Shown here piece by piece: positions 893-43,698 of a stretch of 64,000 nucleotides of DNA; within the stretch, counting starts at the first letter, position 1, and every line of letters begins with the position of its first letter. The translations under genes were made by a program, and so were the position numbers. The notes below the pieces were generated by a model that saw only the letters and a program-made list of their open reading frames with translations, searched no databases and was not told the DNA's origin. This DNA is from an uncultured Candidatus Saccharibacteria bacterium (lineage in GTDB: Bacteria; Patescibacteriota; Minisyncoccia; Phycocordibacterales; DATGWK01). The stretch lies in assembly GCA_964428845.1 (NCBI GenBank), contig CAYRZH010000001.1, forward strand, positions 204,445 through 268,444. The letters run 5' to 3'.

Positions 893-1495
893 ATGAATAC
901 GACGATGAGCACCAAGCAACTCCAGTCACTTCTGGACCTCGCTGAACAGAAGGGGCTCACTCCAGAGCGCATGACTGTGATTCTTGCCTCTGGAGTCCTC
1001 GCAGATGTCCTTGATGCCGGTGCGCTTCTTTCGAACCGTGGAGCGGTTCGTCGGGCCCTGGGTCTCGGACCGCTCGAGTTCCAGATCACCGTGGACTACA
1101 CCCTCGACCTCGCTGCGATGATCGCAGCCGGCAAGTACGACTACGTCAACCCCGACATCATGGCCGGCAGTTTCCCGATCAAGGGAGAAGGCAAGCGGGA
1201 ACTGACAGCCCAGCTCGTCCACTTCAACCGTGTCATCTCATCAGATGATGTGGAGAAGGAACTCTCCAAGAAAGGCCTGCGGCCCGCCACGATCGAGGAA
1301 CTCCTTGCCTTCGGGGCGACATTCCCTGAAGTGCAGCGCAGATTCCCGATCATCGCTCTTGGCTCTGTCGCCGAGGTCCGCGGCCGCCGGAGCGTTTCGG
1401 CTCTCGGCGGGGACAGGTCCGGGCGCAACCTCTACCTGTACTGGCGTGTCAGCGATTGGCTTGGGCTCTGCCGTTTCCTCGCCCTCCCCAAGTAG
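893..1495 (+). CDS. Uncharacterized protein, family member P1 (G+C-rich cassette gene)
   Basis: 200-aa ORF with SD AAAGGAG 8 nt upstream. Its core (YDYVNPDIMAGSF...LVHFNRVISSDDVEKEL) aligns with P2 and P3 (NPxIT.ENY ... F.VKVF.I...VSSDD.L). It is followed by a GC-clamp terminator. Confidence 0.5.
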   Translation: MNTTMSTKQLQSLLDLAEQKGLTPERMTVILASGVLADVLDAGALLSNRGAVRRALGLGPLEFQITVDYTLDLAAMIAAGKYDYVNPDIMAGSFPIKGEGKRELTAQLVHFNRVISSDDVEKELSKKGLRPATIEELLAFGATFPEVQRRFPIIALGSVAEVRGRRSVSALGGDRSGRNLYLYWRVSDWLGLCRFLALPK

Positions 1496-1514
1496 TTCTC
1501 TTCTCTGGTTCTCA

Positions 1515-1555
1515 CCCCGCGCGGGCTTAAATGTTCGCGCGGGTTTTCGTTTTAT
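1515..1555 (+). terminator. Rho-independent terminator (CCCGCGCG-loop-CGCGCGGG + T-tract)
   Basis: Perfect 8-bp GC stem followed by TTTTCGTTTT. Confidence 0.6.
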
Positions 1556-1595
1556 TAGCTACTCTCTCTTCACAGAGAAACGATACGTCTTTGTG

Positions 1596-1612
1596 CGCGC
1601 TGAGGGACTCGG
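1596..1612. repeat. Second partial copy of the tRNA-Val 3' end (GCGCGCTGAGGGACTCG), att-like
   Basis: 17/17 nt identical to the 1747-1763 segment of tRNA-Val. Confidence 0.55.
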
Positions 1613-1744
1613 TCACGCGTATTCGCCTGCTGGCGAATCGCGCGACCCCGGCTCGGCGCCGTCGCGCCTGCGCCCTTCTCGTCCCTCATCGCGTCCTAAT
1701 GATGCTTCGTTCGGAAGCCTCCCAGGCTCCCTCACGAATCATTA

Positions 1745-1817
1745 TGCGCGCTGAGGGACTCGAACCCCCGACCCACTGAGTGTAAATCAGTTGCTCTACC
1801 AACTGAGCTAAGCGCGC
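1745..1817 (-). tRNA. tRNA-Val (anticodon TAC)
   Basis: Reverse complement folds as a 73-nt cloverleaf. Acceptor GCGCGCT/AGCGCGC, D-loop AGTTGGTA, anticodon loop TTTACAC, T-loop TTCGAGT. CCA is not encoded. Confidence 0.85.
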
Positions 1818-1885
1818 GTATTTGTCTTGCGAAGTAACAATATTCTATAACCCCAACTTTTTCAACTCTGTGATAGTATCTCGGC

Positions 1886-2668
1886 ATGGATATTCCCATT
1901 CTCTTCGAGGACGAAAACTACATCATCATAAACAAACCAGCCGGTCTCGTGGTGCATCCAGACGGAAAAACCGACGAACCATCTCTTACCGATTGGCTTA
2001 TTAAAAATTACCCAAAAATGAAAGGGGTCGGTGAGCCACTCAAACTTTCAGGCGGCGAGACCATCGATCGTCCAGGAATAGTTCACCGGCTAGACAGAGA
2101 CACCTCTGGCGCTCTTGTGATAGCCAAAACCCAAAAAGCCTTCGAGGATCTCAAGGAAAAATTTCAAAACAGAGAAGTTTCTAAAAAATATCATGCGTTT
2201 GTCTATGGAGAGGTAAAGGAGAGCGAGGGCGTGATCGACCGACCTATCGGCAGGAGCAATAAAGATTTTCGAATGTGGTCAGCCCAGCGTGGTGCAAGGG
2301 GTGAGCTTCGCGAGGCGCTGACTCATTACCGTGTACTCGCGCGGGGGGTCACTGGACAGGTGGGCGAAGAGGGGAGCGCACCCGAGAAATTTACTTTCGT
2401 AGAGATCGAGCCAAAAACCGGCCGCACCCACCAGATACGCGTTCATTTTAAAGCTATAAACCACCCTGTGATTTGCGACCCACTCTACGCTCCAAAAAGG
2501 GAGTCCGCACTTGGTTTTAAAAGGCTCGCGCTGCATTCTCGGTCGATAGGTTTTGTTGGTATTTCAGGGAACGCGATCGAGGCTACCGCACCGTATCCGA
2601 AGGATTTTCAAGATTCTATAGAGGCTGCCGAAGAAGCCGCCGACCTTGAGCGAATTGCGAAAGAGTGA
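1886..2668 (+). CDS. RluA-family pseudouridine synthase
   Basis: HRLDRDTSGALVIAKT catalytic motif; 260 aa. Confidence 0.85.
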   Translation: MDIPILFEDENYIIINKPAGLVVHPDGKTDEPSLTDWLIKNYPKMKGVGEPLKLSGGETIDRPGIVHRLDRDTSGALVIAKTQKAFEDLKEKFQNREVSKKYHAFVYGEVKESEGVIDRPIGRSNKDFRMWSAQRGARGELREALTHYRVLARGVTGQVGEEGSAPEKFTFVEIEPKTGRTHQIRVHFKAINHPVICDPLYAPKRESALGFKRLALHSRSIGFVGISGNAIEATAPYPKDFQDSIEAAEEAADLERIAKE

Positions 2669-2693
2669 GGCCTGTGATACATTGGTGTCCATT

Positions 2694-3131
2694 ATGGAAA
2701 CGCACGGAATCACAATTTCACCGGTAAATATGGGAGAGCGAGCCAAGCTCGATATTCGTGCTGGTGACACTGTGAAAGTGTGGCAGAAGATTCAGGAAAA
2801 AGGCAAAACTCGTCTTCAGGGTTTTGAGGGTCTTGTTTTGGCCGTAAAACATGGCAAGGAAGCAGGGGGAACTTTTACTGTAAGAAAGGTGGCAAGTGGT
2901 GTCGGCGTTGAGAAAATTTTCCCAATCTATTCTCCAGTTATAGATAAAATTGAGATCACGAAGCGTTCAAAGGTTCGACGTGCCAAGCTCTATCATATTC
3001 GCGATAAGGCTGCTAAGGAGGTGAAGCGTCAGATGAGAAATATCAGGGTCAGCCGTGATGAGGAAGTAGCGGAGGCGCCAGCGACTCCAGCTGAAGCTCC
3101 GAAAGGGGAGGGGGAAAAGGTGGGGAAGTAA
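2694..3131 (+). CDS. rplS: 50S ribosomal protein L19 with a short acidic/Ala-Pro C-terminal tail
   Basis: METHGITISPVNMGERAKLDIRAGDTVKV ... FTVRKVASGVGVEKIFPIYSPVIDKIEI ... RRAKLYHIR matches the L19 consensus. Start chosen at the internal ATG that matches the family N-terminus. Confidence 0.85.
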   Translation: METHGITISPVNMGERAKLDIRAGDTVKVWQKIQEKGKTRLQGFEGLVLAVKHGKEAGGTFTVRKVASGVGVEKIFPIYSPVIDKIEITKRSKVRRAKLYHIRDKAAKEVKRQMRNIRVSRDEEVAEAPATPAEAPKGEGEKVGK

Positions 3132-3280
3132 GATCGATCACTGTAGTAGTGGAAGCGATTGTTCTTAGCCCCCAATAAAATGATGGTGGAAATAAAAGAG
3201 ATTTATTTACATTTTTTAAATATATATTGGTATACGCTATATGCTTGAGGGAATCCCCATTATTTGATACAATGCATTAA

Positions 3281-3964
3281 ATGGGGAATAGCGGGCCAAA
3301 ACCAAAAGGCAAAATAAAGATTAAATGGTCCTCAAATTTTGCCTATGCCATTGGGCTTATTGCCACAGACGGAAACCTTTCTCCAAGTGGTCGTCATATA
3401 GTCTTTACATCTAAGGACTTTGAACAAATAAATAATTTCAAGAAGATTCTACGTTTAACAAATAAAATAGGGAAAAAGGGAAATGGTAGTAGTAAGGAGA
3501 AAAAATATTATGTCTTGCAATTTGGAGACGTCCTATTTTATTCATTTCTCGGGAAAATAGGCATATCTCCTGCAAAATCCAAAACCATAGGCCCTATTCA
3601 AGTTCCAGATAAATTCTTTTTTGATTTTCTAAGGGGATGTTTTGATGGCGATGGGTGCAGTTATAGTTATTGGGATAAGCGTTGGAAATCCAGCTTTCTT
3701 TTCTATATTTCCCTAGCTTCCGCGAGCGAACCTTTTATTTCTTGGGTTAGAAAAAAAGTAAAGCAGTTTGTGGGCGTATCTGGCCACGTTAGCAAACTAA
3801 AAAATGCTTCAGGTTTTCAATTGAGATATGCAAAAAACGATGCAAAGAAGATTGTTTATGAAATGTACAGAAAACCTAATAGTGTTTTCTTGAAAAGGAA
3901 AAAGTTGAAAATCAACAGATCTTTGGCTATTATGAGCCAATTCCCCAAAAGACGACTAAAGTGA
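3281..3964 (+). CDS. LAGLIDADG homing endonuclease, free-standing, very AT-rich
   Basis: Two LAGLIDADG motifs: YAIGLIATDGNL and FLRGCFDGDGCS. Own promoter-like TTGAGG-17-TACAAT lies upstream. The gene ends 16 nt before tRNA-Leu. Confidence 0.8.
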   Translation: MGNSGPKPKGKIKIKWSSNFAYAIGLIATDGNLSPSGRHIVFTSKDFEQINNFKKILRLTNKIGKKGNGSSKEKKYYVLQFGDVLFYSFLGKIGISPAKSKTIGPIQVPDKFFFDFLRGCFDGDGCSYSYWDKRWKSSFLFYISLASASEPFISWVRKKVKQFVGVSGHVSKLKNASGFQLRYAKNDAKKIVYEMYRKPNSVFLKRKKLKINRSLAIMSQFPKRRLK

Positions 3965-3979
3965 TTTGGTAGGATAAAT

Positions 3980-4061
3980 GCGCGGGTGTTGTAATTAGTA
4001 GCCAAGCACGCTTGAGGTGCGTGTGCCGTAAGGCGTGGAGGTGCAAGTCCTCTCCCGCGCA
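3980..4061 (+). tRNA. tRNA-Leu (anticodon GAG), type II with long variable arm
   Basis: Acceptor GCGCGGG/CCCGCGC, 3-bp D-stem with 11-nt loop as in E. coli tRNA-Leu, anticodon arm CACGC-TTGAGGT-GCGTG, 13-nt variable arm, T-arm GGAGG-TGCAAGT-CCTCT. Confidence 0.8.
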
Positions 4062-4079
4062 CAGTTCTTGTTTTTATAT

Positions 4080-4154
4080 GGTGCCTATGGTGTAACGGTT
4101 AACACTGGAGCTTGTGGAGCTCTCGATACCGGTTCGATTCCGGTTAGGCACCCA
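4080..4154 (+). tRNA. tRNA-His (anticodon GTG) with G-1
   Basis: G-1 + GTGCCTA acceptor pairing with TAGGCAC, anticodon loop TTGTGGA, T-arm ACCGG-TTCGATT-CCGGT, discriminator C. Confidence 0.8.
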
Positions 4155-4288
4155 CGGTTTGACAGAATGCTTAAAAAGTTATATCGTCTAAGACAGAAAG
4201 GTCCTCTTACTATTTCGGTGTCGTGATAAAAGCATGTCGACACATGCACGACTACGCTCCACACTTGGAGTGTTGAGGGGATTGAAAA

Positions 4289-4676
4289 ATGAAGATCCGC
4301 GTCAATTTCCAGGTTAGATGCAAGAATATGAGATGCATTCCGGGCTATAAGGCCAAAGAGACTGAGGGGGAAGATGTTTGGTGGGGGAAGTGACTTCTCG
4401 GGTATCATCAATTCTCCCGCAATACCGCGTGTGGGGGAGATTATTTTTATCACTGACAAGACCACCTTATGGCCTGGAATCGTTGTTGTTGAAAATGTGC
4501 ATTATTTTCTGGAGGGAGGAATTCTTAAGCCTGAGCTTGAATGCAACGACAGTGTCATCGATCTCAGTCGATATGCCAATATTCCCTGGATGTCATCATG
4601 GTCCGGTGTGGAAAAGTGGTTCCGTGATATCGAAAGGGTACTGGGCGAAGTGGGGTTCAGAGAGGAAGAGGAATAG
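4289..4676 (+). CDS. Hypothetical protein, possibly frameshifted: ORF 4289-4393 continues in +1 frame as 4374-4676; acidic C-terminus
   Basis: Two overlapping ORFs would read as one ~130-aa protein if a +1 shift occurs near 4375. No recognisable motif. Confidence 0.2.
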
Positions 4677-4751
4677 TCATTAGAGAAAACTGTCCTTGTA
4701 TCTGATTCGGCAAGTGCCCAACCAGGTCCATTCAATTGAAAGGAGTAAGCC

Positions 4752-5399
4752 GTGGGTATCGGGACAAATATTTTCGGCTCTTTTCTCACATTGAATTTGG
4801 CAAATCGTCGCCGGCGGGGAATGGCTATGTTCGGACACAAAAAGCCTGATTCAGCCGCACGTATTTTGGGTAGGGGAACGACCGACCGCTTCAAACTCAT
4901 CGACGAGTTCGAGGTCGTCGTGCCGATGGATTATGTTCACGCCACCTGTCTCTCTGATCTTGCGAGGGATTTCGGACACATGATCTCCCCTTTTTACCCT
5001 GTATTGACTGACGACAACTACAGAAACGTGACGACCCGCATGGAGCCAGGGGAAAGATTTGTGGCAAAGATTTTTCACATTGTTGGGCTGGAAACTTCTT
5101 TTGCCTGTCTGGGTTTGCTTGATCGGGAGAGAGCCATTCTGGCCGGGGCCCAGGGGCTGGCTCTCGTTTTTCGGGTGGCGAAGGACAGACTACCTCCCGA
5201 TCTCTGGACAGTTTCTTTCGACAGACCAGACGCATTGTTCTTCGATAGCCACAACGGCTGTCACCGGGTGCCGACCATTGGGCCATCCAGACAAAATCCC
5301 GGCAAGGGAGAGTTCCACTCCGGCTTCTTTGAACCCTTCGAGGGGGATAAGGGTTGGGATGCTCGCTTCTGTCTTCTCTGTCTTGTTCGTCAAGGGTAG
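4752..5399 (+). CDS. Uncharacterized protein, family member P2 (G+C-rich cassette gene)
   Basis: GTG start 6 nt after AAAGGAG. Core FEVVVPMDYVHAT...YPVLTDDNYRNVTTRMEPGERFVAKIFHIVGLETS...AILAGAQGLAL...LWTVSFDRPDAL ... FCLLCL aligns with P3. Confidence 0.5.
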   Translation: MGIGTNIFGSFLTLNLANRRRRGMAMFGHKKPDSAARILGRGTTDRFKLIDEFEVVVPMDYVHATCLSDLARDFGHMISPFYPVLTDDNYRNVTTRMEPGERFVAKIFHIVGLETSFACLGLLDRERAILAGAQGLALVFRVAKDRLPPDLWTVSFDRPDALFFDSHNGCHRVPTIGPSRQNPGKGEFHSGFFEPFEGDKGWDARFCLLCLVRQG

Positions 5400-5417
5400 A
5401 TTTTCTAAGTGTTCCCG

Positions 5418-5452
5418 GCGGCCCCGCGCTCGCGCTCGGGGTCTTTCTTTTA
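5418..5452 (+). terminator. Rho-independent terminator (CCCCGCGC-TCGC-GCTCGGGG + TCTTTCTTTT)
   Basis: GC-clamp hairpin plus T-tract. Shares the GCGCTCGGGG half with the terminator at 19231. Confidence 0.6.
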
Positions 5453-5579
5453 TAAATAATGATTTTAAGGATGGGTAAAACACAAGTATGTAGATGTTGG
5501 TGCGTTTGTCTGTTTAAACTTGGTTTCAACTTCCTGATACTGCGGCACCCACAATTTTTCTTCTGATATACTTTTCCTA

Positions 5580-6209
5580 ATGGTTGAAAGCGCTGAATTT
5601 GGTGTAAAAAAAGATCAACTCCCAGACGACAAATTAAACAGTATTATAGAAAAATACTGCGCCTCCTTGGTGGTTCCAAAAGATAAACCAAAGAAACAAT
5701 TTTTTCTTTGCCCAGTCGGCCTTATTGGGTCTGGCAAGACAACGGTTTTAAAGCCTTTGGCCGAAAAATTGAATCTTGTGCGTATATCTGGAGATGAAAT
5801 TAGGAAGATACTTTATGACCTGGGTTTTGATTATGATCGAACGTGGGAGATAGGGAGTATGGTTGTTGAAAGATATGCCAGAGAAGGATACAGCATTGCT
5901 CACGATACTGATTGTGCTACTCCAAAAACTATTGAGGCGATAAATAAACTCTCTAAGGAATTGGGTGCCCAGGTAGTATGGGTGCACGTCAACCCTCCAG
6001 AAGAATTTATTTTAAATAAGTTAAGGAAATATAAACACACATGGCTATATCGTGACGGTGAACATGCCATATCCAATTATTTAAGCCGAAAAAAAGTGCA
6101 CGAAAATTTACCAATGAATTTTCTTTATTCGTTTGATACATCTAAACCCAATCTCGACGAACAAATAGAACAAGCTTCGGAAGTCATTTTAAACAAGACC
6201 CAATTTTAA
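5580..6209 (+). CDS. P-loop NTPase / small kinase-like protein (Walker A GLIGSGKTT), AT-rich
   Basis: Walker A motif and ~210-aa size typical of AAA_33/zeta-toxin-like or nucleoside-kinase-like proteins. Family not assignable by eye. Confidence 0.55.
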   Translation: MVESAEFGVKKDQLPDDKLNSIIEKYCASLVVPKDKPKKQFFLCPVGLIGSGKTTVLKPLAEKLNLVRISGDEIRKILYDLGFDYDRTWEIGSMVVERYAREGYSIAHDTDCATPKTIEAINKLSKELGAQVVWVHVNPPEEFILNKLRKYKHTWLYRDGEHAISNYLSRKKVHENLPMNFLYSFDTSKPNLDEQIEQASEVILNKTQF

Positions 6210-6365
6210 TGTCTTTAGCCAGCCATAACTCCTCTTTTTATAAAATCAATAGATTCTCTCATAAGAATCTATTGATCATATTCGAGGGATGTGTATGATG
6301 AGAACAGAATTAATTTATGGGCAAATAAGGTTTTAACCCCGACTGAAATCAACAGGAGCATAGAG

Positions 6366-6581
6366 ATGAAAGCCGCAAGCTTGTCCCACCGTCAATGGTT
6401 TACTCGAGAGGGGCCTGATCGTCGCGTTTACGAGAGACTCCCTGGCCTTCCGGAGATTGTAGAGGGGGTCATGGCGATTCCAGTCCGACCGATTACGCCT
6501 ACTGTAAGACAACCAGGCTACTACATTCCAGCGGATGAATCGGTCGAAGTATGTCCTTCGAGATGTGTTCGGGTCGCATAA
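6366..6581 (+). CDS. Small hypothetical protein (72 aa) in a moderately G+C-rich patch
   Basis: CAGGAG SD 8 nt upstream of ATG. No recognisable motif. The opposite-strand ORF 6333-6611 is an alternative. Confidence 0.2.
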   Translation: MKAASLSHRQWFTREGPDRRVYERLPGLPEIVEGVMAIPVRPITPTVRQPGYYIPADESVEVCPSRCVRVA

Positions 6582-6633
6582 GGGCGTCATCGCAGGGGGG
6601 CAGAATGCCACCCTTTTTTCTTAGCCAAAATAG

Positions 6634-6765
6634 TATTTATGGACACGACGGGAGTTGAACCCGCAGTATTTAGTTGGTAAAACAAAATACCTAAACCGTT
6701 AGCGTGCCCATGACGCGATATACCACTCCGCGCCTAGGCAGACTCTAACAAAGACACATTCAAAT
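6634..6765. repeat. 132-bp direct repeat, copy 1 (tRNA/tmRNA-3'-end-like: reverse strand reads GCGGGTTCAACTCCCGTCGTGTCCA)
   Basis: 130/132 identical to 8095-8226. Contains a T-arm-like GGGTTCAACTCCC and a D-arm-like GAGTGGTATAT. Confidence 0.7.
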
Positions 6766-6901
6766 ATTTATTAAGTATACCCACCCCTCATCCCACCGCC
6801 AATCTTTCTGGATTTTTGTGACAGTTTGGTTCTTGTAGTTAGTGTTCGGTAAACAGTTAATGCAGCTTGTACCCCCCATTTTCCTAGGGTATAATTTCCT
6901 T

Positions 6902-7312
6902 ATGAAAAAAATAATCATAATTATTATTGCAATCGTCGTTGTTGTTGGTGGGGTTTGGTTTTATAAAAATAATGTGACAAGAACAAATATGAGCCCAAAA
7001 GAAACATACAAAGTAATTAACGACGAGTTGGCAAGGACGAAGAGTTTTGATGAATATGTTGCCGTCATGCTAAAGTATACCTCCTCAAAAAGCGATAACT
7101 CTGAGTTCAAAGATATGGTTGCAAACATGGACGATACGGAGAAAGAGAATTTTTTTAAATACTTACAAGAAAACAACATTATCCCCACTGACGCTCAATT
7201 ATCAGAGAAACTGACTGATAGCGAGCATGCAACTGTGAGCTGGAATGATTCCGATAACAAGACCAAAAGTATTGATATGGAAATAGACGGCGGTTCTTGG
7301 AAGATTAAGTAA
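6902..7312 (+). CDS. Membrane-anchored hypothetical protein (single N-terminal TM helix, Lys/Asp-rich ectodomain)
   Basis: MKKIIIIIIAIVVVVGGVWFY N-terminus; AT-rich; lies between the 132-bp repeats. Confidence 0.45.
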   Translation: MKKIIIIIIAIVVVVGGVWFYKNNVTRTNMSPKETYKVINDELARTKSFDEYVAVMLKYTSSKSDNSEFKDMVANMDDTEKENFFKYLQENNIIPTDAQLSEKLTDSEHATVSWNDSDNKTKSIDMEIDGGSWKIK

Positions 7313-7583
7313 CTCTAAATACTCCCTTTTTGGGGTCCGGGTAGGGTTAAAAAAGAACCGAATTAAGCTAAAACTGCTATACTTTGCATGTCAGAAGTGT
7401 AGATCGTCGCATCGTTCCTTTTCTTAAATATAGTTCTGATTTCCTCTACGACGGCACCCAAATGATTTTGAATAAACACATATCAACTTGGTCTAGTTTT
7501 GCGTAACTCCTTTTCCAGTTTTGTTTTTGCTTTAAAAAATCTCTAAATCTAAAAAGAATACACCACAAAGAAAGGAGATCGAC

Positions 7584-7973
7584 ATGGATCTTTCGGTGGT
7601 CATGGCTCGCCGAATTGTTACGACAGCTCTTGGTTATGTCGGCACACCTTATAGTTGGGAGGAGTTTAATTGTGTTCACTTTATAAGAAAGGTATATCAG
7701 GATGTTGGAATTGTTTTTCCTCGGCTTGTTAAAGAGATGGATCCTCCTGCAGATTTCCATCTTTCAGAGGAAGAGTTCGAAGAAATGCCGCTTGGTCGGT
7801 CTGTGTTTTTTAAAAGAAAAACTAGCAATCTACCCAGGAGTTGGACTCACATTGCTATTATTGTTTCTCCAAATGAATTAGTTCATTGTGCTCGCCGTCT
7901 GGGGTTTGTAGTTGTGACGCCGAAGTTAGAATTCCTCGAGACATACGCACTCACCCCAAAACCACTCTCATGA
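7584..7973 (+). CDS. NlpC/P60 (C40) family cell-wall peptidase
   Basis: GTPYSWEEFNCVHFIRKVY (Cys of the catalytic dyad) and a downstream His (THIAIIVSPNELVHCARR). Confidence 0.6.
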   Translation: MDLSVVMARRIVTTALGYVGTPYSWEEFNCVHFIRKVYQDVGIVFPRLVKEMDPPADFHLSEEEFEEMPLGRSVFFKRKTSNLPRSWTHIAIIVSPNELVHCARRLGFVVVTPKLEFLETYALTPKPLS

Positions 7974-8094
7974 GGGTGGTTTTTTATAATGTGATAGAAT
8001 TTTTTGCTGGGGCTAGAGCAACAAGATGTGGATTTTTACGCAGAATTGGAGGTTTATTATTCTCGGGTATAGCGACTTTCCTTCTCGTATAGAA

Positions 8095-8226
8095 TATTTA
8101 TGAACACGACGGGAGTTGAACCCGCAGTATTTAGTTGGTAAAACAAAATACCTAAACCGTTAGCGTGCCCATGACGCGATATACCACTCCGCGTCTAGGC
8201 AGACTCTAACAAAGACACATTCAAAT
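8095..8226. repeat. 132-bp direct repeat, copy 2
   Basis: 130/132 identical to 6634-6765. Followed by a bidirectional terminator CCGCCTCGAAAGGCGG at ~8248-8270. Confidence 0.7.
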
Positions 8227-8517
8227 CTTTTTTAAGAAAAGATAAATACAAAAACCGCCTCGAAAGGCGGCTTTTGCGATATTCTGTCTTACCAACCTCT
8301 GAATTATATATAACTCTCTCTCACTGTCAAAAAAAGACCGCCCCTTCCCGACGGTTTTTCTGGGACCCAAACTCACCAATATGAAAAATATGCAAAAATA
8401 TTCTCTTCCGACAATTGGGGGAAGGTAATTTGACAAATCTGTAAAATAGTGTAAACTCCCGTCCAGAACATTCGTGGCTTGTGGCCACAATAGCCGATCT
8501 TTCAATGGAGAACATGG

Positions 8518-9000
8518 ATGAACTCGGGAACAAACCTCGACGATAAGTCATCTTCGACTGATGGTAGTTGGTTCCTTTTCAACTTCGTGATCGTTGCTCT
8601 CATTATTTTGGCATTGGGCATCTCTGTCCCATCCTGCCGTCGGTACGCACAGAATGAGAGTGTCCGTATCCAGACCAAAGAGGTAGCCTTGAGGTTGGAC
8701 ACCCAGACTACCGAGGCCGGTGTCTATGTGAGGGTGCCGGAGGAGGAATTGCCTGACACCGATCTGTGGGGAACCAAACTCCGGGTTCAGTACGCGCAGG
8801 GTGGGGTGGCGGAGACGATCAGAGTCACCAGTGCCGGGCGTGACAAGTTGTTCGGGACCACCGACGACATCTCTTCCTACTGCCTTTCTACCAACCTCAA
8901 GGGGATTGGCACAGGTCTTCGAGACAATGCCGAGGAGGCCTCACGCAATGTCGCCAAGGGTCTCGTCGAGGGGGTCAAGGAAGGTCTCAAGAAGAAGTAA
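8518..9000 (+). CDS. GspG-like pseudopilin / type IV pilin-like protein on a G+C-rich segment; N-terminal prepilin motif degenerate
   Basis: Hydrophobic N-terminal helix (FLFNFVIVALIILALGISVPSCRRYAQNESVRIQTKEVAL) like pilin alpha1. C-terminal DLWGTKLRVQY...IRVTSAGRDKLFGTTDDI resembles the GspG signature (DPWG..Y.Y....SLG.DG..GG..DDI). Confidence 0.45.
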   Translation: MNSGTNLDDKSSSTDGSWFLFNFVIVALIILALGISVPSCRRYAQNESVRIQTKEVALRLDTQTTEAGVYVRVPEEELPDTDLWGTKLRVQYAQGGVAETIRVTSAGRDKLFGTTDDISSYCLSTNLKGIGTGLRDNAEEASRNVAKGLVEGVKEGLKKK

Positions 9001-9084
9001 GTCTTTTGCTTGGTTTTCACCAACTCCGATTTTGTCGATACACCGTCCACCCCCCCGTGGCCGGTTTTTTCTTTTACGGGGAAG

Positions 9085-9129
9085 CTTCGTACGAAGGATT
9101 TGACATATACCCCCTGGGGGGTATATGAT
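9085..9129 (+). promoter_or_regulatory. csoR-copA promoter with embedded candidate CsoR operator. TTGACA(9100-9105)-18-TATGAT(9124-9129); the spacer is the inverted repeat ATATACCCCC-TG-GGGGGTATAT. A perfect 12-nt palindrome CTTCGTACGAAG lies at 9085-9096 just upstream.
   Basis: Read directly from sequence. C5/G5 inverted repeats are typical of CsoR operators. Confidence 0.5.
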
Positions 9130-9135
9130 ACCGAT

Positions 9136-9399
9136 ATGAACACAAATAAAATAAAAATGCTTCGTCGGTTGAAAATTATCGAGGGGCAGGTTCGTGGTCT
9201 GCAGGAAATGGTCGAGAAGGGTACTTATTGTATTGACGTTATTACCCAAGGTTCGGCGATCAAGCAAGGTCTATCAAATGTCGAAGATATGCTCATGGAG
9301 CATCACCTCTCACATTGCGTAGTCAAACAGATAAAAGAGGGGACTCCCGATAAAGCTGTAAATGAGGTTCTTAAAGTTTACAAACTCAAACGTAAATAA
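9136..9399 (+). CDS. csoR: CsoR/RcnR-family copper-sensing repressor
   Basis: [38 protein letters not shown]...HHLSHCVV contains the CsoR C-H-C ligand pattern. Confidence 0.75.
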
Positions 9400-9404
9400 A
9401 AAAT

Positions 9405-12362: not shown

Positions 12363-12385
12363 ATTATTAATCTAATAACAAAAAC

Positions 12386-15050: not shown

Positions 15051-15055
15051 GGTAG

Positions 15056-31857: not shown

Positions 31858-31872
31858 CGGGGCACTGCAATT

Positions 31873-33600: not shown

Positions 33601-33672
33601 TTCTAAAGGTGAGTTATCGAGAGCCTCTCTTTTTGCATAAATGTCTAAAAATGCTAGTATTTTCCTTATATT

Positions 33673-37227: not shown

Positions 37228-37228
37228 T

Positions 37229-37825
37229 ATGTTCTATCATACCCACAATACAGAAGCTTTCGTTCTGACTGCATTGCCTTCAGGAGAATCTAGCAAATAC
37301 GTATATCTATTTACAAAAGACCTCGGCCTGGTCGGAGCGCATGCTCAAGGAGTGAGAGATGTGAAGTCGAAGTTGCGTTATGCCCTCGACAACCTATCTT
37401 ACTCGAGAGTTTCTTTGGTGAGAGGTAAAAACTCCTGGAGACTCACCAACGCTGTGCCCCATAAGAATTTCTTTCTCGAGTTTCGCGATGACCAACCCAA
37501 GCTCATCTTATGTGCCAATACTCTTGCCCTTATAAAAAAGCTTGTTGCCGGCGAAGAAAAAAACCACAAACTTTTCGAAATTCTCGACAGTGGCTTTTCT
37601 TTCTTAGAGAGAGAAAGGCTTTCGTCTGACAACATAAAAAACGTCGAGGCGATCTTTATGTTGAGAATTCTAGATAACCTCGGCTATCTAGGTGACGAGG
37701 CCGTGCTCGAGCAGTTTGTCTTGGGCGACGCTTGGAGCCATGAAATGCTCGTAGAGATGGAGAGGGAACGACGAAATGCCGTTTTTGCTATAAATAAATC
37801 TCTCGAAGCGAGCCATATGATATAA
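37229..37825 (+). CDS. recO: DNA repair protein RecO-like (short form)
   Basis: N-terminal OB fold: EAFVLTALPSGESSKYVYLFTKDLGLVGAHAQGVRDVKSK...YSRVSLV. Confidence 0.55.
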   Translation: MFYHTHNTEAFVLTALPSGESSKYVYLFTKDLGLVGAHAQGVRDVKSKLRYALDNLSYSRVSLVRGKNSWRLTNAVPHKNFFLEFRDDQPKLILCANTLALIKKLVAGEEKNHKLFEILDSGFSFLERERLSSDNIKNVEAIFMLRILDNLGYLGDEAVLEQFVLGDAWSHEMLVEMERERRNAVFAINKSLEASHMI

Positions 37826-37833
37826 TTTTTGTC

Positions 37834-39771
37834 ATGGCGTTAAACTCTAAAGGCGGAAAGATAGAAAAGCTTGAAAAAGATCTTTATTCACGAGAGGCCC
37901 CACAAATAAGCGGTTTTGAGCGTGAACCTCTCAAGCCTCAAAGGAAAGGTAACAGTGCTGGTTGGAGTGAAAACGAGGACTTGGCCAAGGAACTTGCCAC
38001 CGAATACAGCGAGCCAAAGAAAACCTCTTTTTTCACAAAAGTTTTCATTGCTTCCATAATATTTTTCGTGGTGGCTGCGGGTATCGCCGCCTATATCCTT
38101 CTCGGTGGTTTCAACGTAATTTCTTCAAAAAATGTAGATATTCTCGTCGAAGGACCGATCGCCGCGGCGGCAGGGGAAGAGTTGGTCCTCGATATAACTG
38201 TCTCCAACAACAATAACGTCCTTCTCGAGCAAGTGGAACTTTTTGTAGAGTACCCCGAAGGTACCAGGATGTCGGAAGATCTAACAAAAGAACTTGTCCG
38301 AGACAAGATATTGTTTGACGATATACCATCAGGGAAGACGGGAACAAAAACGATCAAAGCTGTTCTTTTTGGCGAAAAAGATAGCGCCAAAGATATAAAG
38401 ATGACTCTTGACTATAAAGCTCGTGGAGCCAACGCCTCATTTTCTAAACAAAAAACCTATAGCATTGTTATAAAGTCGTCACCGATTCTTATGGAAGTGG
38501 CGTACCCCAAGGAAGTCAACGCTGGCCAGGAGATAACCTTCACCCTAAACATAACCTCAAATTCTGCGGCTCTTGTCCGTAATCTTATCCTCCGAGCAGA
38601 GTATCCGTTTGGCTTTAGTTTTACGGGTTCAGTTCCAAAGACGAGCTCTGATAATAATGTCTGGCGTGTTGGCGATCTCAATCCCAAAGAGAAACGAACA
38701 ATAGTCATAAAGGGAAAAATAGAGGGGCAAAATGAGGAAGAGAGGACTTTTAGATTCAACACCGGGATTGCCAAAGAGAATGACGAAAACCAAATTGGGG
38801 TTGATTTCATCTCTCTTTCCCAATCAATTTTAATTAAAAAACCATTCATCGATCTTGCTGTAAAGCTAAATCAAAGCAACGAAAAAGAATACTTCACCAA
38901 GATAGGTGAGCACGTGAGAGGGGAAATTTCTTGGTCCAACAGCTTACCGATTACGATCAACGACATCGAAGTTTTGGTCAAACTTTCTGGAAGTGCCTTG
39001 GACCGCAATACAGTAAGGCCGAGCCGCGGAGGTTTTTACCGATCGGCAGACAACACTATCACCTGGGACAAAAACAGTCTTCCAGAGCTTCGCTCTATCG
39101 GTCCAAACGATACAAATTCTGTCGGTTTCGAATTTAGTTCTATTCCGAGTTCACAGAATCTCATTGCCACTGGCAGGAATCTAGAAATGAATGCAAATAT
39201 TTCTGTCAAAGGAACTCGCATAACCGAAGATGGTGTCTCGCAGACAGTGACCACTTCATTTGATAGGAAGGTCAAGATACTAACCAATCTCTCGCTCAAT
39301 GGCCGCACTCTTTATTCGACAGGACCGTTTAGAAATACGGGGCCTGTGCCGCCCAAGGCTGAAGTTCCAACCTCGTATACTATCGTCTGGACGCTCTCCA
39401 ACACTTTCAATGATGTCACCGGGGCATCCGTCAGTGCGACACTGCCGCCATACGTCAAGTGGCTAAACGTCTTTAGTCCTACGAATTCGAACATTGTTTA
39501 TAACGCAGAGAATCGCACTATTGTTTGGAACAGTGGGGAAGTGAAGGCCGGTAGTGGTTTTAGTTCGCCTGCACAGGAAGTTTCTTTCCAGATTTCTCTT
39601 GAGCCGAGCTTAAGCCAAGTCGGAACAGTGCCGGCTTTGGTAGAAAATATTCAGTTTACAGGCACAGATCGATTTACTGGTAAAGTTATCGGTGAGTCGA
39701 AGTTGCCTCTCACGACCAGAGCAAGTACGGACCCTACCTACAATATCGGCAATGAGACGGTTGTGAGATAG
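37834..39771 (+). CDS. Large membrane-anchored extracellular protein with repeated beta-sandwich (CARDB/DUF11-like) modules
   Basis: N-terminal TM (FFTKVFIASIIFFVVAAGIAAYILL) then repeated ~100-aa beta-rich units. Typical CPR surface protein. Confidence 0.45.
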   Translation: MALNSKGGKIEKLEKDLYSREAPQISGFEREPLKPQRKGNSAGWSENEDLAKELATEYSEPKKTSFFTKVFIASIIFFVVAAGIAAYILLGGFNVISSKNVDILVEGPIAAAAGEELVLDITVSNNNNVLLEQVELFVEYPEGTRMSEDLTKELVRDKILFDDIPSGKTGTKTIKAVLFGEKDSAKDIKMTLDYKARGANASFSKQKTYSIVIKSSPILMEVAYPKEVNAGQEITFTLNITSNSAALVRNLILRAEYPFGFSFTGSVPKTSSDNNVWRVGDLNPKEKRTIVIKGKIEGQNEEERTFRFNTGIAKENDENQIGVDFISLSQSILIKKPFIDLAVKLNQSNEKEYFTKIGEHVRGEISWSNSLPITINDIEVLVKLSGSALDRNTVRPSRGGFYRSADNTITWDKNSLPELRSIGPNDTNSVGFEFSSIPSSQNLIATGRNLEMNANISVKGTRITEDGVSQTVTTSFDRKVKILTNLSLNGRTLYSTGPFRNTGPVPPKAEVPTSYTIVWTLSNTFNDVTGASVSATLPPYVKWLNVFSPTNSNIVYNAENRTIVWNSGEVKAGSGFSSPAQEVSFQISLEPSLSQVGTVPALVENIQFTGTDRFTGKVIGESKLPLTTRASTDPTYNIGNETVVR

Positions 39772-39816
39772 GGCAGCGAGCGGTATAGTAGACACCATTA
39801 AACATTCTAAATATCC

Positions 39817-41226
39817 ATGGAAGACAAGAAGAAAAAGGGAAAGGCTGGCAGCGTCAGTGAAGGAAGACCAGACTCCGGCGGCGAAAATAGCGGAAAAATG
39901 GAAAAAATAATCTCTCTTGCTAAAAGGCGCGGCTTTATCTACCAAGGTTCGGAAATATACGGTGGCTTGGCCGGTACCTGGGACTACGGACCACTGGGCG
40001 TGGCACTCAAGAATAATATAAAGAATTTGTGGTGGAAAAGGTTCGTGAGCGACCGGGAGGATATGTATGGAGTGGATACCGCTATCCTCATGAACCAGAA
40101 AGTTTGGAAGGCTACCAAGCATACAGAGGTTTTCGCAGATCCGATGGTGGAGTGTAAGAAATGCAAGCACCAGTTCAGGGGTGATCAGGTAGAAGGGAAT
40201 AAGTGTCAGGACTGCGGTGGGATGCTCGGAGAAGTGAAGACGTTTAACACAATGTTCAAAACCCACGTCGGCGCGTCAGAAGATGCTGCCGCCACTTCCT
40301 ACCTTCGCCCCGAGACCGCACAGGGCATGTTTGTAAATTTTAAAAATGTCGTCGACTCATTTCACCCGAAGCTTCCGTTTGGCCTCGCACAAACAGGGAA
40401 GGCTTTTAGGAACGAAATAGCTCCACGCGACTTTCTCTTTCGAGCCCGCGAGTTTGAGCAAATGGAAATAGAATATTTTATCCGAGCGGGCGAATGGGAA
40501 AAATATTTTGAGTACTGGAAAACTGAAATGATCTCATGGTTTGAGCAACTTGGAGTCGCTCGTGGCACTGTGCACGAGCTTGAGGTGCCAGCAGAAGATC
40601 GGGCGCACTACTCGGAACGCACTATTGATTTTGAATTCGACTTCCCGTTTGGAAAAAAAGAACTAGCCGGCCTTGCCTACAGGACCGACTTCGATCTTAA
40701 AAACCATGCTTCGGCTAGTGGTGTGGACCTGTCGTATTTTGATGAGGAGACGAAGGAGAGATTTACTCCTCATGTTATTGAACCTACATTTGGTCTCGAC
40801 AGACTTATTCTTGCCATTTTCTCGAGTGCTTACAGTGAAGATGACTTGGGTGGAGAAAAAGCAGATATGAAGGAAGAAGTGGCCGACAAAATTGAGAAAG
40901 CCGAGAAACGTGTTTTTCTGAAACTCGCACCCGCAGTCGCCCCTGTGCGTGTTGCAGTTTTTCCTTTACTTAAAAATAAGCCGCAACTAGTCGAGAAGGC
41001 TCGCGAAGTTTACGGTATGCTCAAAAAAGAAATTTCAGGAGCCGTAGTTTTTGACGACAACGGCAACATCGGCAAGCGCTACAGAAGGCAGGATGAGATC
41101 GGCACGCCGCATTGTGTCACTATAGATTTTGATACTTTAGAAAATGACACGGTCACACTCCGCGATCGTGATACGGGGAAGCAGGAGAGGGTGGAGGTAA
41201 AAGAGCTCAAAAAAGCTTTACTTTAG
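39817..41226 (+). CDS. glyQS: Glycyl-tRNA synthetase (class II, dimeric alpha2 type)
   Basis: FRNEIAPRDFLFRAREFEQMEIEYF motif 2; 469 aa. Confidence 0.9.
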   Translation: MEDKKKKGKAGSVSEGRPDSGGENSGKMEKIISLAKRRGFIYQGSEIYGGLAGTWDYGPLGVALKNNIKNLWWKRFVSDREDMYGVDTAILMNQKVWKATKHTEVFADPMVECKKCKHQFRGDQVEGNKCQDCGGMLGEVKTFNTMFKTHVGASEDAAATSYLRPETAQGMFVNFKNVVDSFHPKLPFGLAQTGKAFRNEIAPRDFLFRAREFEQMEIEYFIRAGEWEKYFEYWKTEMISWFEQLGVARGTVHELEVPAEDRAHYSERTIDFEFDFPFGKKELAGLAYRTDFDLKNHASASGVDLSYFDEETKERFTPHVIEPTFGLDRLILAIFSSAYSEDDLGGEKADMKEEVADKIEKAEKRVFLKLAPAVAPVRVAVFPLLKNKPQLVEKAREVYGMLKKEISGAVVFDDNGNIGKRYRRQDEIGTPHCVTIDFDTLENDTVTLRDRDTGKQERVEVKELKKALL

Positions 41227-41252
41227 GGCATATTTCTTCTGCAGCGCTACTA

Positions 41253-41282
41253 TTGACTCGAGCACCGTTTGTATGATATAAT
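41253..41282 (+). promoter_or_regulatory. Promoter TTGACT-18-(TG)TATAAT of P3, followed by a conserved structured leader (stem GCACAG..CTGTGC, then GCTTC-TTCG-GAAGC just upstream of the SD)
   Basis: Promoter plus leader are ~85% identical to 42880-42990 upstream of P4. Confidence 0.45.
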
Positions 41283-41366
41283 TTCGCACAGAAAGAGTAT
41301 GGCACTGTGCTGTATTCTAGTTCTCTGAACCGCTTCTTCGGAAGCACAGCAAGAAAGGAAAATGTC

Positions 41367-42071
41367 ATGAGCGCGAAACGCGTGTGTGACATGAGCCCAA
41401 GAAACGTGTGTGACATGAGCTGTGGGGCGATGCATGAGTTTGCATTGGCCCTCGACAAGGCCGGTTTTACCGCTAGTCTTGTACAACAGGTCATCAACTC
41501 GGGTGGCAACAAGCTCGCGAGAGCAATGCGTGCTGCTCTCACAACAGGAGTCGTGGTGGATGACCGGTTCGAACTGGTCGACTCCTTCGATGTCGTTGTG
41601 CCCGACGGCTACGACCACGCAACCCGTTTGGGGACGTTCTGGAGAGAACACGGCGAAGAGTTCGATTGCTACAACCCCTCCATCACCGACGAGAACTACA
41701 GCGGAGCGACAAACAAACTCGTCCCTGGTCGGGGGTTCAGGGTGAAGGTTTTCCAGATCAGGGGGGTCGTGTCATCCGACGATTGCCTGGCTCACCTGCG
41801 TTCGCAGAAGGCTGTACTTGTTGGCGCCCAAGGTGCGAGTCTTGCCTACGAACAGGGCAAGAACATGCTACCAGTCAACCGGTGGTCAGTCTCCTTCGAT
41901 GATAAGGATGCGCTTTTGGAAGACCCCAGTGGCTGGCATTGGGTGCCGGACGTGCTCCGCCACTCGGACGGTAGCTTCAGGTTCAATCTTGGTCAGTTCG
42001 AGTTAAACTGGAACGACGGCTTCTGCCTTCTCTGCTTCTGCGGCTTTGAGCCCGAGTCCTCTGGCGCCTAG
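41367..42071 (+). CDS. Uncharacterized protein, family member P3 (G+C-rich cassette gene)
   Basis: FDVVVPDGYDHAT...YNPSITDENYSGATNKLVPGRGFRVKVFQIRGVVSSDDCLAHL...AVLVGAQGASL...RWSVSFDDKDAL...FCLLCF. Tandem 16-nt duplication near the N-terminus (VCDMS x2). Confidence 0.5.
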   Translation: MSAKRVCDMSPRNVCDMSCGAMHEFALALDKAGFTASLVQQVINSGGNKLARAMRAALTTGVVVDDRFELVDSFDVVVPDGYDHATRLGTFWREHGEEFDCYNPSITDENYSGATNKLVPGRGFRVKVFQIRGVVSSDDCLAHLRSQKAVLVGAQGASLAYEQGKNMLPVNRWSVSFDDKDALLEDPSGWHWVPDVLRHSDGSFRFNLGQFELNWNDGFCLLCFCGFEPESSGA

Positions 42072-42086
42072 GCCGCTCGAAGCCTT

Positions 42087-42800
42087 CTTCGAACCCATAA
42101 CCCTTAGACCCTCAATCCCCAGTTTGCCAAACGGCAGGCTGGGGATTTTCTTTTACGGGAAACCAACATTATCTGTAAAACCTATAAGCCCTTGACTTTT
42201 TATATAATTATGCTAAGATCCAGGCAGAAATCAGCGGCGAAATGGTGTTCAGAGTAGCCACATAAACAAGATCTTTCAAGGGAGAAGTGTCATGAATAGC
42301 CTCTCGTGTCGTCGGGGTTTCTCGTTTGTCGAGCGTGTGATCGTGATCATCATTGCTTGCATCCTGGTATCGATCGTCATTTCGCGCTTCGGGCCCAACG
42401 GCCCGGCGCCGCAGGTGATGGTTACCACCCCGAGCGGTGAGGAGGCGGAAGTCAAGGTCGGCGAGATCATTATGGTGACCTTGAGGAGAGGCAAAGGCCT
42501 CAGCTATCACCTCGAAGAGGGGACCTACCTGATCAGTGCGATCGAGTACAATGGAGTGAACTGGGAAGTTGGTCTCCGCAAACTCGGGAAACCCGGATTC
42601 CCCAGACTCACTTACTTTCTGAGTGACTATGTGTTCAAGAAGGAGACGAGTACCTATATCTGGGTTCAGGTGATCGAACCCACTGATCCGCAGTACAAAG
42701 ATCTCATGGTCGAGTTCGCCAAGGGGGGTGGTAAGTAGGAAGAAGGGAGTGTGACACAAGTCGCCGACCATGGGGTTGGCGATTTTCTTTATCCATCCAT
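42087..42800. repeat. Copy A of a ~715-bp 100%-identical direct repeat (terminator + prepilin-like gene); part of a 1.6-kb tandem duplication
   Basis: Identical to 43684-44398 at an offset of ~1598 bp. Begins with a strong terminator (12-bp stem CCCCAGTTTGCC-AAAC-GGCAGGCTGGGG + ATTTTCTTTT). Confidence 0.85.
42292..42738 (+). CDS. Prepilin-type N-terminal cleavage/methylation-domain protein (pseudopilin-like), copy A
   Basis: RRG|FSFVERVIVIIIACILVSIV matches G-F-x-x-x-E with hydrophobic helix; 148 aa. Confidence 0.5.
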   Translation: MNSLSCRRGFSFVERVIVIIIACILVSIVISRFGPNGPAPQVMVTTPSGEEAEVKVGEIIMVTLRRGKGLSYHLEEGTYLISAIEYNGVNWEVGLRKLGKPGFPRLTYFLSDYVFKKETSTYIWVQVIEPTDPQYKDLMVEFAKGGGK

Positions 42801-42822
42801 TTCTTTATGCCGCACTCTCTTC

Positions 42823-42870
42823 ATGAAATTTAATAAAAAGATACTAAAGAGTGGTTTGCGTCTCATTACT
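42823..42870 (+). pseudogene. Duplicated 5' fragment of the M16 peptidase gene (MKFNKKILKSGLRLIT) left at the duplication junction. It runs in-frame through the P4 promoter/leader.
   Basis: Near-identical to the N-terminus of the intact gene at 44421. Confidence 0.55.
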
Positions 42871-42879
42871 GCGCTACTA

Positions 42880-42909
42880 TTGACTTGTGTACCATTCGTA
42901 TTATATAAT
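42880..42909 (+). promoter_or_regulatory. Promoter TTGACT-18-TATAAT of P4 plus the conserved structured leader
   Basis: Paralogous to 41253-41366. Confidence 0.45.
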
Positions 42910-42990
42910 CTCGCGCAGAAAGAGTATGGCACTGTGCTGTATTCTAGTTCCCTCAAACCGCTTCTTCGGAAGCAAAGGAAGGAAATGCCC

Positions 42991-43698
42991 ATGAGTAGTG
43001 GGAATGTCCGACTGATCACGTCTGGTCAAAAGTTCGAATTAGCGGCGGCGCTCGTCAAGGCGGTTCCGGAATTAGATTCGATGCCATTTGAGACTGCCCG
43101 GCGATGGATCGGCGATCAGAAGGCTATTGCCTGCGCCCTGTCGCAGGCTCTCATGCCGGCCGAGGTCGTTGGGGCACAGAAGACTATCCTCCGTCTGATT
43201 CCCGGTGCCGAGGCTCTCACCCTCGGACCCACCGACGGCCAGGCAACGATCGCAGAGTCAAGGGGCGTCTTCAACAACGTCGACCCCGGCTTCACGACCT
43301 GGGGAACAAACGTCCCCGGAGTCGCCACCGGGGAGATCGCTGTCTCTGTCTACGAATTGGTTGCAGACGCTTCCTTCGAGCAGATGTTCGGGTCGCTCCC
43401 CGCACGCCTCGGCGCGCTCTGTCTCACACAGGCTCAAATCATCAAGTTCGTACTAACACGCCAGCGTCACCTCCGCACCGACGGCTACGCCACGTTCTTC
43501 CTTTTCGAAGTGGGAAGCGAGTTTTTCGTCGCGCACGTGTACCTGCCCGCCGGTGGCGACCCCCATGTGCACTTCTACCGCCTCTCGGGCGCCTTCGGCT
43601 GGCACCGCGAGCACCGCCATCGCATCGTGGTTCCGCAACTCACCCCTGCCCGTCCCGGAATCCTGCCCCCAGCTCGATTCTCTGCTTCGAACCCATAA
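42991..43698 (+). CDS. Uncharacterized protein, divergent family member P4 (G+C-rich cassette gene)
   Basis: SD AAAGGAAGGAA 8 nt upstream. Retains only parts of the family core (FNNVDPGFTTWGTNVPGVATGEIAVSVYEL vs YNPSITDENY...LVPGRGFRVKVFQI). The C-terminus runs into repeat B. Confidence 0.4.
   Translation: MSSGNVRLITSGQKFELAAALVKAVPELDSMPFETARRWIGDQKAIACALSQALMPAEVVGAQKTILRLIPGAEALTLGPTDGQATIAESRGVFNNVDPGFTTWGTNVPGVATGEIAVSVYELVADASFEQMFGSLPARLGALCLTQAQIIKFVLTRQRHLRTDGYATFFLFEVGSEFFVAHVYLPAGGDPHVHFYRLSGAFGWHREHRHRIVVPQLTPARPGILPPARFSASNP

Follow-up and report, generated by a model that had tools for sequence, protein, structure and literature searches.

Four G+C-rich genes in a Patescibacteria contig are probable orphan targets of diversity-generating retroelements

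Diversity-generating retroelements (DGRs) are defined by a target gene with a variable region (VR), a template repeat (TR), the accessory protein Avd and a reverse transcriptase (RT), and the classical scaffold of their variable proteins is the C-type-lectin/formylglycine-generating-enzyme (CLec/FGE) fold. Structures of CLec-fold variable proteins have been solved for Mtd of a Bordetella phage, TvpA of Treponema and TaqVP of Thermus (PMC6328139). For the Candidate Phyla Radiation (CPR), most VR classes were left unassigned (UVR1-6; Wu et al. 2018, PMC5758913), and a Patescibacteria-restricted DGR clade ('clade 2') was described whose targets lack recognisable domains and for which new C-Lec variants were predicted (Roux et al. 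2021, PMC8144416). Here, we analysed a 64-kb window (positions 204,445 to 268,444) of the 269,714-bp contig CAYRZH010000001.1 from an uncultured Candidatus Saccharibacteria bacterium, in which an earlier note, made from the sequence alone, had pointed to four uncharacterised open reading frames (ORFs), termed P1 to P4; all window-level absences reported below cover these 64 kb. We conclude, with a probability of roughly 90%, that P1 to P4 are DGR variable-protein target genes of a Patescibacteria-specific kind. The four ORFs are present on the plus strand as that note had described them (A2, A3 and A4 denote the family alignments of P3/P2, P1 and P4, respectively):

893..1495, plus strand: P1, 200 aa, family A3; N-terminal helical module and a CLec-type core predicted by homology
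4752..5399, plus strand: P2, member of the P3 family (A2), stand-alone, partly decayed, without the family's N-terminal helical module
41367..42071, plus strand: P3, family A2; N-terminal three-helix module and C-type-lectin/FGE-fold domain, predicted from a model
42991..43698, plus strand: P4, family A4, stand-alone DGR-type variable-protein gene

The evidence that carries this conclusion comes from the genomic neighbourhood of homologs in other genomes. More than 160 homologs each were retrieved for P3, P1 (174) and P4 (162), all of them unannotated and all from Patescibacteria or unclassified metagenomes; 126 loci were fetched and are referred to by L numbers. P3-family genes were found at 34 genome loci, many of which encode, on the strand of the target and 1.5-2 kb behind it, an RT with the motif IRYADDF, together with a 119-133-nt copy of the gene's 3' end 250-550 nt downstream. 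Downstream of the P1-family gene in L043 lie a repeat of 137 nt (81% identical) and genes for bAvd and RVT_1, and among 80 metagenome loci of the P4 family, a TR was found in about 45 and a downstream RT in about 25. Overall, the TR/VR repeats are 119-137 nt long and 81-86% identical, and Pfam detected both bAvd and RVT_1 in L023, L043 and L044. Complete cassettes show the order target gene, TR, bAvd on the opposite strand and RT, and in about half of the homolog loci with enough flanking sequence, the gene is followed by a TR of about 120 nt, bAvd and RVT_1.

In tightly aligned pairs, mismatches between TR and VR fall almost exclusively on TR adenines (16/16 in L005, 15/15 in L020, 17/17 in L048, 11/11 in L053 and 20/21 in L063). 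The TR of L006, for instance, translates to NGNHRVPNVNRNSDGDFKFNLGNFENDWNDDNCLLCFCN, and the VR of the L006 gene reads HGYRRVPRVSRRSDGDFRFDLGFFGLGWRDVDCLLCFCDE, so that the Asn (AAC) codons of the TR face varied residues in the gene. Furthermore, in near-identical loci from different samples (L096 vs. L098/L102 and L061 vs. L104), 14-18 of about 20 differences are located inside the approximately 100 nt of the VR; VR turnover between samples is thus present in DGR-linked homologs. All three families are homologous to VR-bearing genes of canonical DGR cassettes. Since TR, bAvd, RT and adenine-only mismatches stand beside their homologs, A2, A3 and A4 are DGR variable-protein families of Patescibacteria, and P1 to P4 are orphan members of known, unnamed and structurally uncharacterised CPR DGR variable-protein families.

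The family alignments and models agree with this assignment. A2, A3 and A4 share a layout in which a poorly conserved N-terminal helical part precedes a well conserved core of about 100 residues, and their C-terminal approximately 40 residues interleave invariant with hypervariable positions. The AAC->NNC set, i.e., the 15 amino acids obtainable by changing both adenines of AAC, accounts for 91-96% of the residues at hypervariable positions of A2, A3 and A4 (93% in A3), compared to 61-79% at variable core positions. The AlphaFold model of P3 adopts a C-type-lectin/FGE fold with structural matches to CLec-fold domains, places the variable residues in C-terminal strands and loops and shows a conserved C-terminal scaffold motif past the VR. 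The earlier note's statement that the family could not be placed in any known fold has thus been superseded, and on this predicted structure, the CLec fold is assignable to one previously unassigned CPR VR class, that of the P3 family. The P4 model (predicted local distance difference test score of 84) gave no Foldseek match in the PDB. At the sequence level, the lack of similarity to known families noticed earlier is borne out: no Pfam family matched P1 to P4, and profile searches of the PDB with all three family alignments gave no meaningful match. Neither a signal peptide nor a membrane segment was found in P1 to P4. No P1-family loci were found in IMG/VR, and the window's own proteins are confined to one contig in the searched collection.

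With regard to their mutual relationship, the four genes had been described as a single paralogous family with a core of about 110 aa common to all. P2 and P3 are indeed paralogs (41% identity over 177 residues, BLASTP E 5e-40; P2 is found by the A2 profile at E 9e-62), and a loose relatedness extends to all four; the common core, however, was not recovered. P1 matches P3 only faintly by BLASTP (E 0.09), whereas hhalign joins the P1 and P3 families with a probability of 97.2% (E 3.5e-11); P1 is a remote homolog of P3, visible at the profile level only. P4 showed no core similarity to the others by BLASTP, and hhalign of A4 with A2 and A3 joined it to neither (E 0.013 and 0.28). What connects P4 to the rest are the N-terminal helical modules, which are common to all three families, with BLASTP E values as low as 1e-13; the N-terminal part of P4 matches a P1-family member (E 5e-6). 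Likewise, the sequence motifs listed as shared are present in P3 (F[ED]VVVP..Y.HAT, YNPSITDENY, LVPG..F.VKVF.I, VSSDD.L, AVLVGAQG, WSVSFD..DAL and FCLLC), and P2 has the whole set in diverged form. P1 to P4 are real, conserved, protein-coding genes of the plus strand; coding on the opposite strand was considered and ruled out by 40-70% protein identity across hundreds of homologs and by confident models.

Compared with the described systems, P1 to P4 resemble the variable proteins of CPR DGRs (PMC8144416, PMC5758913) in host group, size, C-terminal VR and the lack of a transmembrane segment or recognised domain, and their homologs share the cassette order, the adenine-specific TR/VR changes and the modular N-terminal parts. 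They differ in that the window copies lack TR, Avd and RT within the 64 kb and in that three VR classes lie within 43 kb. The likeness to Mtd, TvpA and TaqVP would lie in the CLec/FGE-type model of P3, its variable residues in C-terminal strands and loops and the scaffold motif after the VR.

The VRs of the window genes were compared with heterologous TRs or a TR consensus, contrasting the mismatch rate at TR-adenine columns with that at the other columns. The segments concerned are as follows:

1355..1492, plus strand: P1 variable region, VR-like C-terminal segment
5247..5390, plus strand: P2 VR-like segment, with insertions and many non-adenine changes
41922..42045, plus strand: P3 variable region, collinear with TRs of other genomes
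43525..43645, plus strand: P4 variable region, compared with the consensus of 39 TRs

Against the L043 TR, P1 mismatches at 27/37 TR-adenine positions (73%) and at 21/100 others (21%; p = 3e-8). For P3, the corresponding values are 15/28 (54%) and 11/77 (14%; p = 1e-4), and for P4 against the consensus 16/27 (59%) and 9/63 (14%; p = 3e-5), while the signal is weaker for P2, with 18/29 (62%) and 28/75 (37%; p = 0.02). Thus, the C-terminal approximately 40 residues of P1, P3 and P4 appear to carry a signature of adenine mutagenesis, an indirect one, as the TRs stem from other genomes. P2 looks partly decayed because of the insertions in its VR and its missing N-terminal family module.

Within the 64 kb, P1 to P4 are orphan targets. 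No RT motif was found in the window, tblastn with the L043 RT and the L044 Avd gave no match there, a family-profile search of the window matched no ORF fragment besides P1 to P4 and no TR, and blastn-short yielded no TR-like sequence in it; a sliding TR search of the window with A as wildcard returned A-rich noise only and was discarded in favour of the profile and blastn-short searches. Such a situation is common among homologs: of the family members flanked by 3 kb or more on each side, 10/22 in A2 and 7/15 in A4 (about 45% overall) stand alone, with neither TR nor RT nearby. Where a DGR target may have a boundary for the initiation of mutagenic homology and a hairpin or cruciform after the VR, P1, P3 and P4 have GC-rich hairpins with T-runs 20-45 nt past their stop codons, which resemble ordinary intrinsic terminators. 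It should be noted that three points weigh against reading P1 to P4 as DGR targets that were left behind. The adenine footprint cannot be separated from the ordinary divergence of third codon positions. None of the four genes has a cognate TR or RT in the window, and DGR action on them is suggested by a footprint against heterologous TRs. Moreover, 'orphan' may mean 'remote', as 64 kb of the 269,714-bp contig were covered.

The surroundings of the four genes bear on how they came to stand alone. Features at the P1 and P2 loci are as follows:

645..662, plus strand: copy of the tRNA-Val 3' end, 94% over 18 nt (blastn-short and alignment); upstream boundary of the P1 unit
706..734, plus strand: P1 promoter-like site, TTGACA-17-TACAAT, followed by a 157-nt leader
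about 772-830, plus strand: P1 leader hairpin, fold z = -4.4
1516..1543, plus strand: terminator-like hairpin after P1, called by scan
1594..1611, plus strand: second tRNA-Val 3'-end copy, 18 nt long and 100% identical, which closes the P1 unit on its downstream side; 134 nt from the tRNA
1745..1817, minus strand: tRNA-Val(TAC), likely insertion site of the P1 cassette
4081..4153, plus strand: tRNA-His(GTG), right behind which the P2 unit begins

The 3' end of tRNA-Val, which adjoins P1, thus occurs three times including the gene itself, and both extra 18-nt copies bracket the P1 unit. Insertion at a tRNA end leaves such a pattern, yet no integrase is present. Similar lone extra copies were observed in L019 (12376-12393) and L112 (7089-7107), 60-140 nt from minus-strand tRNAs beside DGR targets. 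The P1 leader hairpin is near-perfect, with at least 16 base pairs, and has neither an Rfam match nor a counterpart upstream of homologs.

P2 is adjoined by tRNA-Leu and tRNA-His, and its promoter-like site (4159-4187) is located 565 nt upstream of the gene. The left end of the window (tRNA-Val(TAC), RluA-type synthase, L19, tRNA-Leu(GAG), tRNA-His(GTG)) has a syntenic counterpart in L023, whose full DGR begins 6 nt past tRNA-His, where the window holds P2 only. Between the tRNA-His-proximal promoter and P2 lies an ORF of 100 aa (4374-4676), for which neither a Pfam match nor a homolog among the fetched loci was found; the missing N-terminal module of P2 may have left this stretch behind or been replaced by it. 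A terminator of P2 is absent from the scan calls, yet a GC hairpin with a T-run can be seen at about 5413-5450.

P3 and P4 lie in the two halves of a tandem duplication of about 1.6 kb:

39817-41226, upstream of P3: gene for class II glycyl-tRNA synthetase (GlyRS), ending 18 nt before the P3 unit
41244..41366, plus strand: P3 promoter and leader, TTGACT-18-TATAAT, 88% identical to those of P4
42104..42790, plus strand: Module M copy 1, comprising the P3 terminator (42114-42147), a pilin-like gene (42292-42738) with its own promoter and a second terminator
42824..42870, plus strand: pseudo-copy of an M16 peptidase gene, first 16 codons; junction of the tandem duplication
42871..42990, plus strand: P4 promoter and leader
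43702..44388, plus strand: Module M copy 2, comprising the P4 terminator and pilin-like gene copy 2 (43890-44336)

The promoter-like sites of P3 and P4 are at 41253-41282 and 42880-42909, the terminator-like hairpin of P4 is at 43712-43745, and the P4 reading frame overshoots the usual end of its family by about 12 codons, into the shared flank. Identity between the halves is uneven: Module M is 100% identical over its 687 nt, the promoter-leader 88% and the 5' part of M16 (42791-42870 and 44389-44468) about 75%, and from ATG to stop the two ORFs belong to different families despite the duplicated flanks. This pattern looks as if it required some ORF-precise replacement and a later homogenisation of the downstream module by gene conversion; the uneven divergence is possibly an assembly artefact. 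Because of the duplication, the promoters, leaders and terminators of P3 and P4 are not independent of each other. In the 126 fetched loci, nothing corresponded to the leaders or downstream sequences of P1 to P4, to the pilin-like gene or to the 100-aa ORF, and there is therefore no conserved cis element or partner gene.

These observations also bear on the regulatory features that had been ascribed to each gene. Promoter-like sites matching 10-11 of 12 consensus positions do precede each unit, and terminator hairpins follow P1, P3 and P4, the P2 terminator remaining uncalled by the scan. An AAAGGAG Shine-Dalgarno sequence is present at P1 and P2, whereas P3 has AAAGGAA and P4 AAGGAAGGAA. The long structured leader applies strongly to P1 only (z = -4.4), with z = -2.7 for P4 and z = -1.4 for P3, and a search of the window with Rfam detected tRNAs and 23S rRNA only and no leader RNA family. 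The G+C contents (60.7% for P1, 52.9% for P2, 57.0% for P3 and 61.4% for P4, compared to 44.5% in the rest of the window) agree with the claim that the genes are G+C-rich, at 53-61%, although P2 reaches just 53% and the background is about 44-45% rather than 40%. Across 27 complete cassettes (loci among L005-L126), the median G+C content is 54% for the target, 62% for the VR, 37% for the RT and 42.5% for the flanks, and the target exceeds its surroundings in 73/76 loci. High G+C belongs to the target gene as such and is no sign of foreign origin. An actinobacterial, host-derived origin, which had been suggested, is unneeded to explain a G+C excess confined to the target gene.

The neighbourhood of translation genes in the window, namely tRNA-Val, tRNA-Leu/His and class II GlyRS, is real, whereas the glyS link found no support elsewhere. 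A tRNA gene lies within 300 nt of the target or cassette in 8/58 non-redundant loci versus 1.6 expected at random (Poisson p = 3e-4); the suspected co-occurrence with tRNA genes is therefore an enrichment, confined to a minority of loci. In other genomes, nothing supported a link to aminoacyl-tRNA synthetases; the neighbours there include dnaE, thrS, murC, proteases and DsbA. The tRNA neighbourhood probably reflects insertion sites of cassettes and not a functional link to translation.

In complete cassettes, the RT copies the TR RNA, misincorporating at template adenines, and the resulting cDNA replaces the VR, so that about a dozen codons of the AAC type come to specify a combinatorial surface for binding. 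On our reading, the variable proteins comprise about 200-235 aa, with an exchangeable N-terminal helical module, a ligand-binding scaffold and the VR in the last approximately 40 residues, and the P1 to P4 proteins are predicted to bind ligands. The four genes would have been orphaned after DGR-driven diversification, most likely as fixed variants with their own strong promoters, P2 probably decaying already where the related genome (L023) keeps a full DGR. The cassettes would have arrived by insertion beside tRNA genes (P1 and P2) and by tandem duplication with ORF replacement (P3/P4).

A different view of the orphan state holds that P1 to P4 are active remote targets, served in trans with cDNA from DGRs elsewhere, and that their VRs are still diversifying. 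Non-adjacent targets are documented for other DGRs (PMC5758913, PMC8144416), and those of Treponema denticola and Legionella (PMC5758913) resemble P1 to P4 in being target-type genes away from any RT; moreover, the reading frame is intact in the VRs of P1, P3 and P4, the adenine bias of their footprint is strong and GC-rich hairpins lie just downstream, and about 205 kb of the contig lie outside the searched window. However, at the DNA level the four VRs fall into three classes unrelated to each other, which would call for at least three TRs. Furthermore, accepted remote targets match a TR of the same genome with adenine-only differences, and the comparable case among the homologs failed this comparison. 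In that genome, an orphan (L001) and a complete TR/VR pair (L020) are located 150 kb apart on the same contig; the VR of L020 differs from its own TR at 15 positions, all adenines, whereas the orphan VR differs from it at 36 positions, 16 of them non-adenine, and the L020 TR therefore does not serve L001. This argues for fossils over remote targets, as a single case from another genome. In addition, the orphan gene is unchanged between L039 and L040, loci from different samples with 0 differences in the gene and 17 elsewhere. Given the L001/L020 mismatch and the invariance across samples, fixed, retired variants are favoured over active remote targets for the window genes, and we regard ongoing diversification in trans as unlikely.

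The cassettes could also be seen as cargo of small integrative mobile elements, in which promoter-ORF-terminator units enter tRNA 3' ends, are swapped by recombination and spread ready-made binding proteins horizontally, the DGR link being historical only. This would fit the tRNA-Val copies around P1, the roughly five-fold enrichment of tRNA adjacency across homolog loci, the duplicated ychF 3' end that flanks the L006 DGR cassette, the unrelated P3 and P4 ORFs within otherwise duplicated flanks, an HNH_3 domain fused to one P4 homolog and a G+C content of target genes unlike that of their flanks. On the other hand, integrase, transposase and other mobility genes are absent in and beside the cassettes, leaders and downstream flanks are conserved in no other locus, so that there is no common element end, a tRNA is abutted in just 14-22% of loci, and tRNA-end duplicates also occur near tRNAs without bracketing a target (L019, L112); all in all, we consider it quite improbable that mobile cargo accounts for the genes. 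Least credible, to the point of being very improbable, is a new DGR-independent family with a role in translation or tRNA biology. While the window neighbours (tRNA-Val, tRNA-Leu/His and glyS) and the lack of a Pfam match had made the genes look like a candidate novel translation-linked system, the homologs of all three families are targets in canonical DGR cassettes, the P3 fold is predicted to be CLec, and the neighbours dnaE, murC, proteases and DsbA in other genomes are unrelated to translation.

Reading P1 to P4 as orphaned DGR targets removes a false lead, as G+C-rich islands by tRNA genes turn out to be targets of a known hypermutation system. For CPR genomes, where Pfam is blind, it offers markers for annotation: three alignable families, one CLec-type model, a G+C excess confined to the target and a C-terminal alternation of conserved and NNC-type hypervariable codons. 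That about half of the targets stand alone matters for surveys that count DGR targets only beside an RT, and it also bears on what CPR DGR targets bind. What remains of value beyond the assignment is the frequency and apparent stasis of orphans, the cassette-like behaviour and the CLec assignment. It is a doubtful but conceivable extension that DGR targets of Patescibacteria may act as self-contained, exchangeable expression cassettes of strong promoter, ORF and terminator which outlive the retroelement, insert beside tRNA genes and are swapped ORF for ORF. If so, the genome, with four target-type genes of three VR classes within 43 kb of the window, would keep an 'archive' of fixed, once-hypermutated binding proteins of several VR classes, and the P3/P4 pair and the tRNA-Val fragments bracketing P1 would be traces of cassette traffic.

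Several minor observations were made at the homolog loci. A second target was seen beyond the RT in L111 (3-671, 925-1122, about 2151, 2517-3158), L048, L114 and L123; the two targets of L111 stem from different families, one P4-type and one P1-type, and it may be asked if two VR classes can share one TR. Around the complete DGR cassette of L006, duplicates (9682-9760/12532-12610 and 9843-9895/12631-12683) consist of the ychF 3' end and downstream sequence, 85-90% identical, as though insertion of the entire cassette (target, TR, Avd, RT) had duplicated a long stretch of the target site. The P4-family protein containing an HNH_3 endonuclease domain (PF13392) is P0346, with 341 aa. In L043 and L044, a LAGLIDADG_3 gene directly follows the DGR RT, and in L003, GIY-YIG genes follow the target; in the window, a free-standing LAGLIDADG_3 homing-endonuclease gene (3281-3964) lies between rplS and tRNA-Leu.

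Further observations concern neighbouring genes in the window. The duplicated pilin-like gene encodes 148 aa at 54% G+C; it had no Pfam match, and its type IV prepilin-like N-terminus reads RRGFS followed by FVERVIVIIIACILV, with the prepilin motif G|FSFVE. Finally, a 160-nt direct repeat (6616-6775 and 8077-8236; 93% identical, 1461-nt spacing) encloses an ORF for a small membrane protein (6842-7312) and an NlpC/P60-like ORF (7584-7973).

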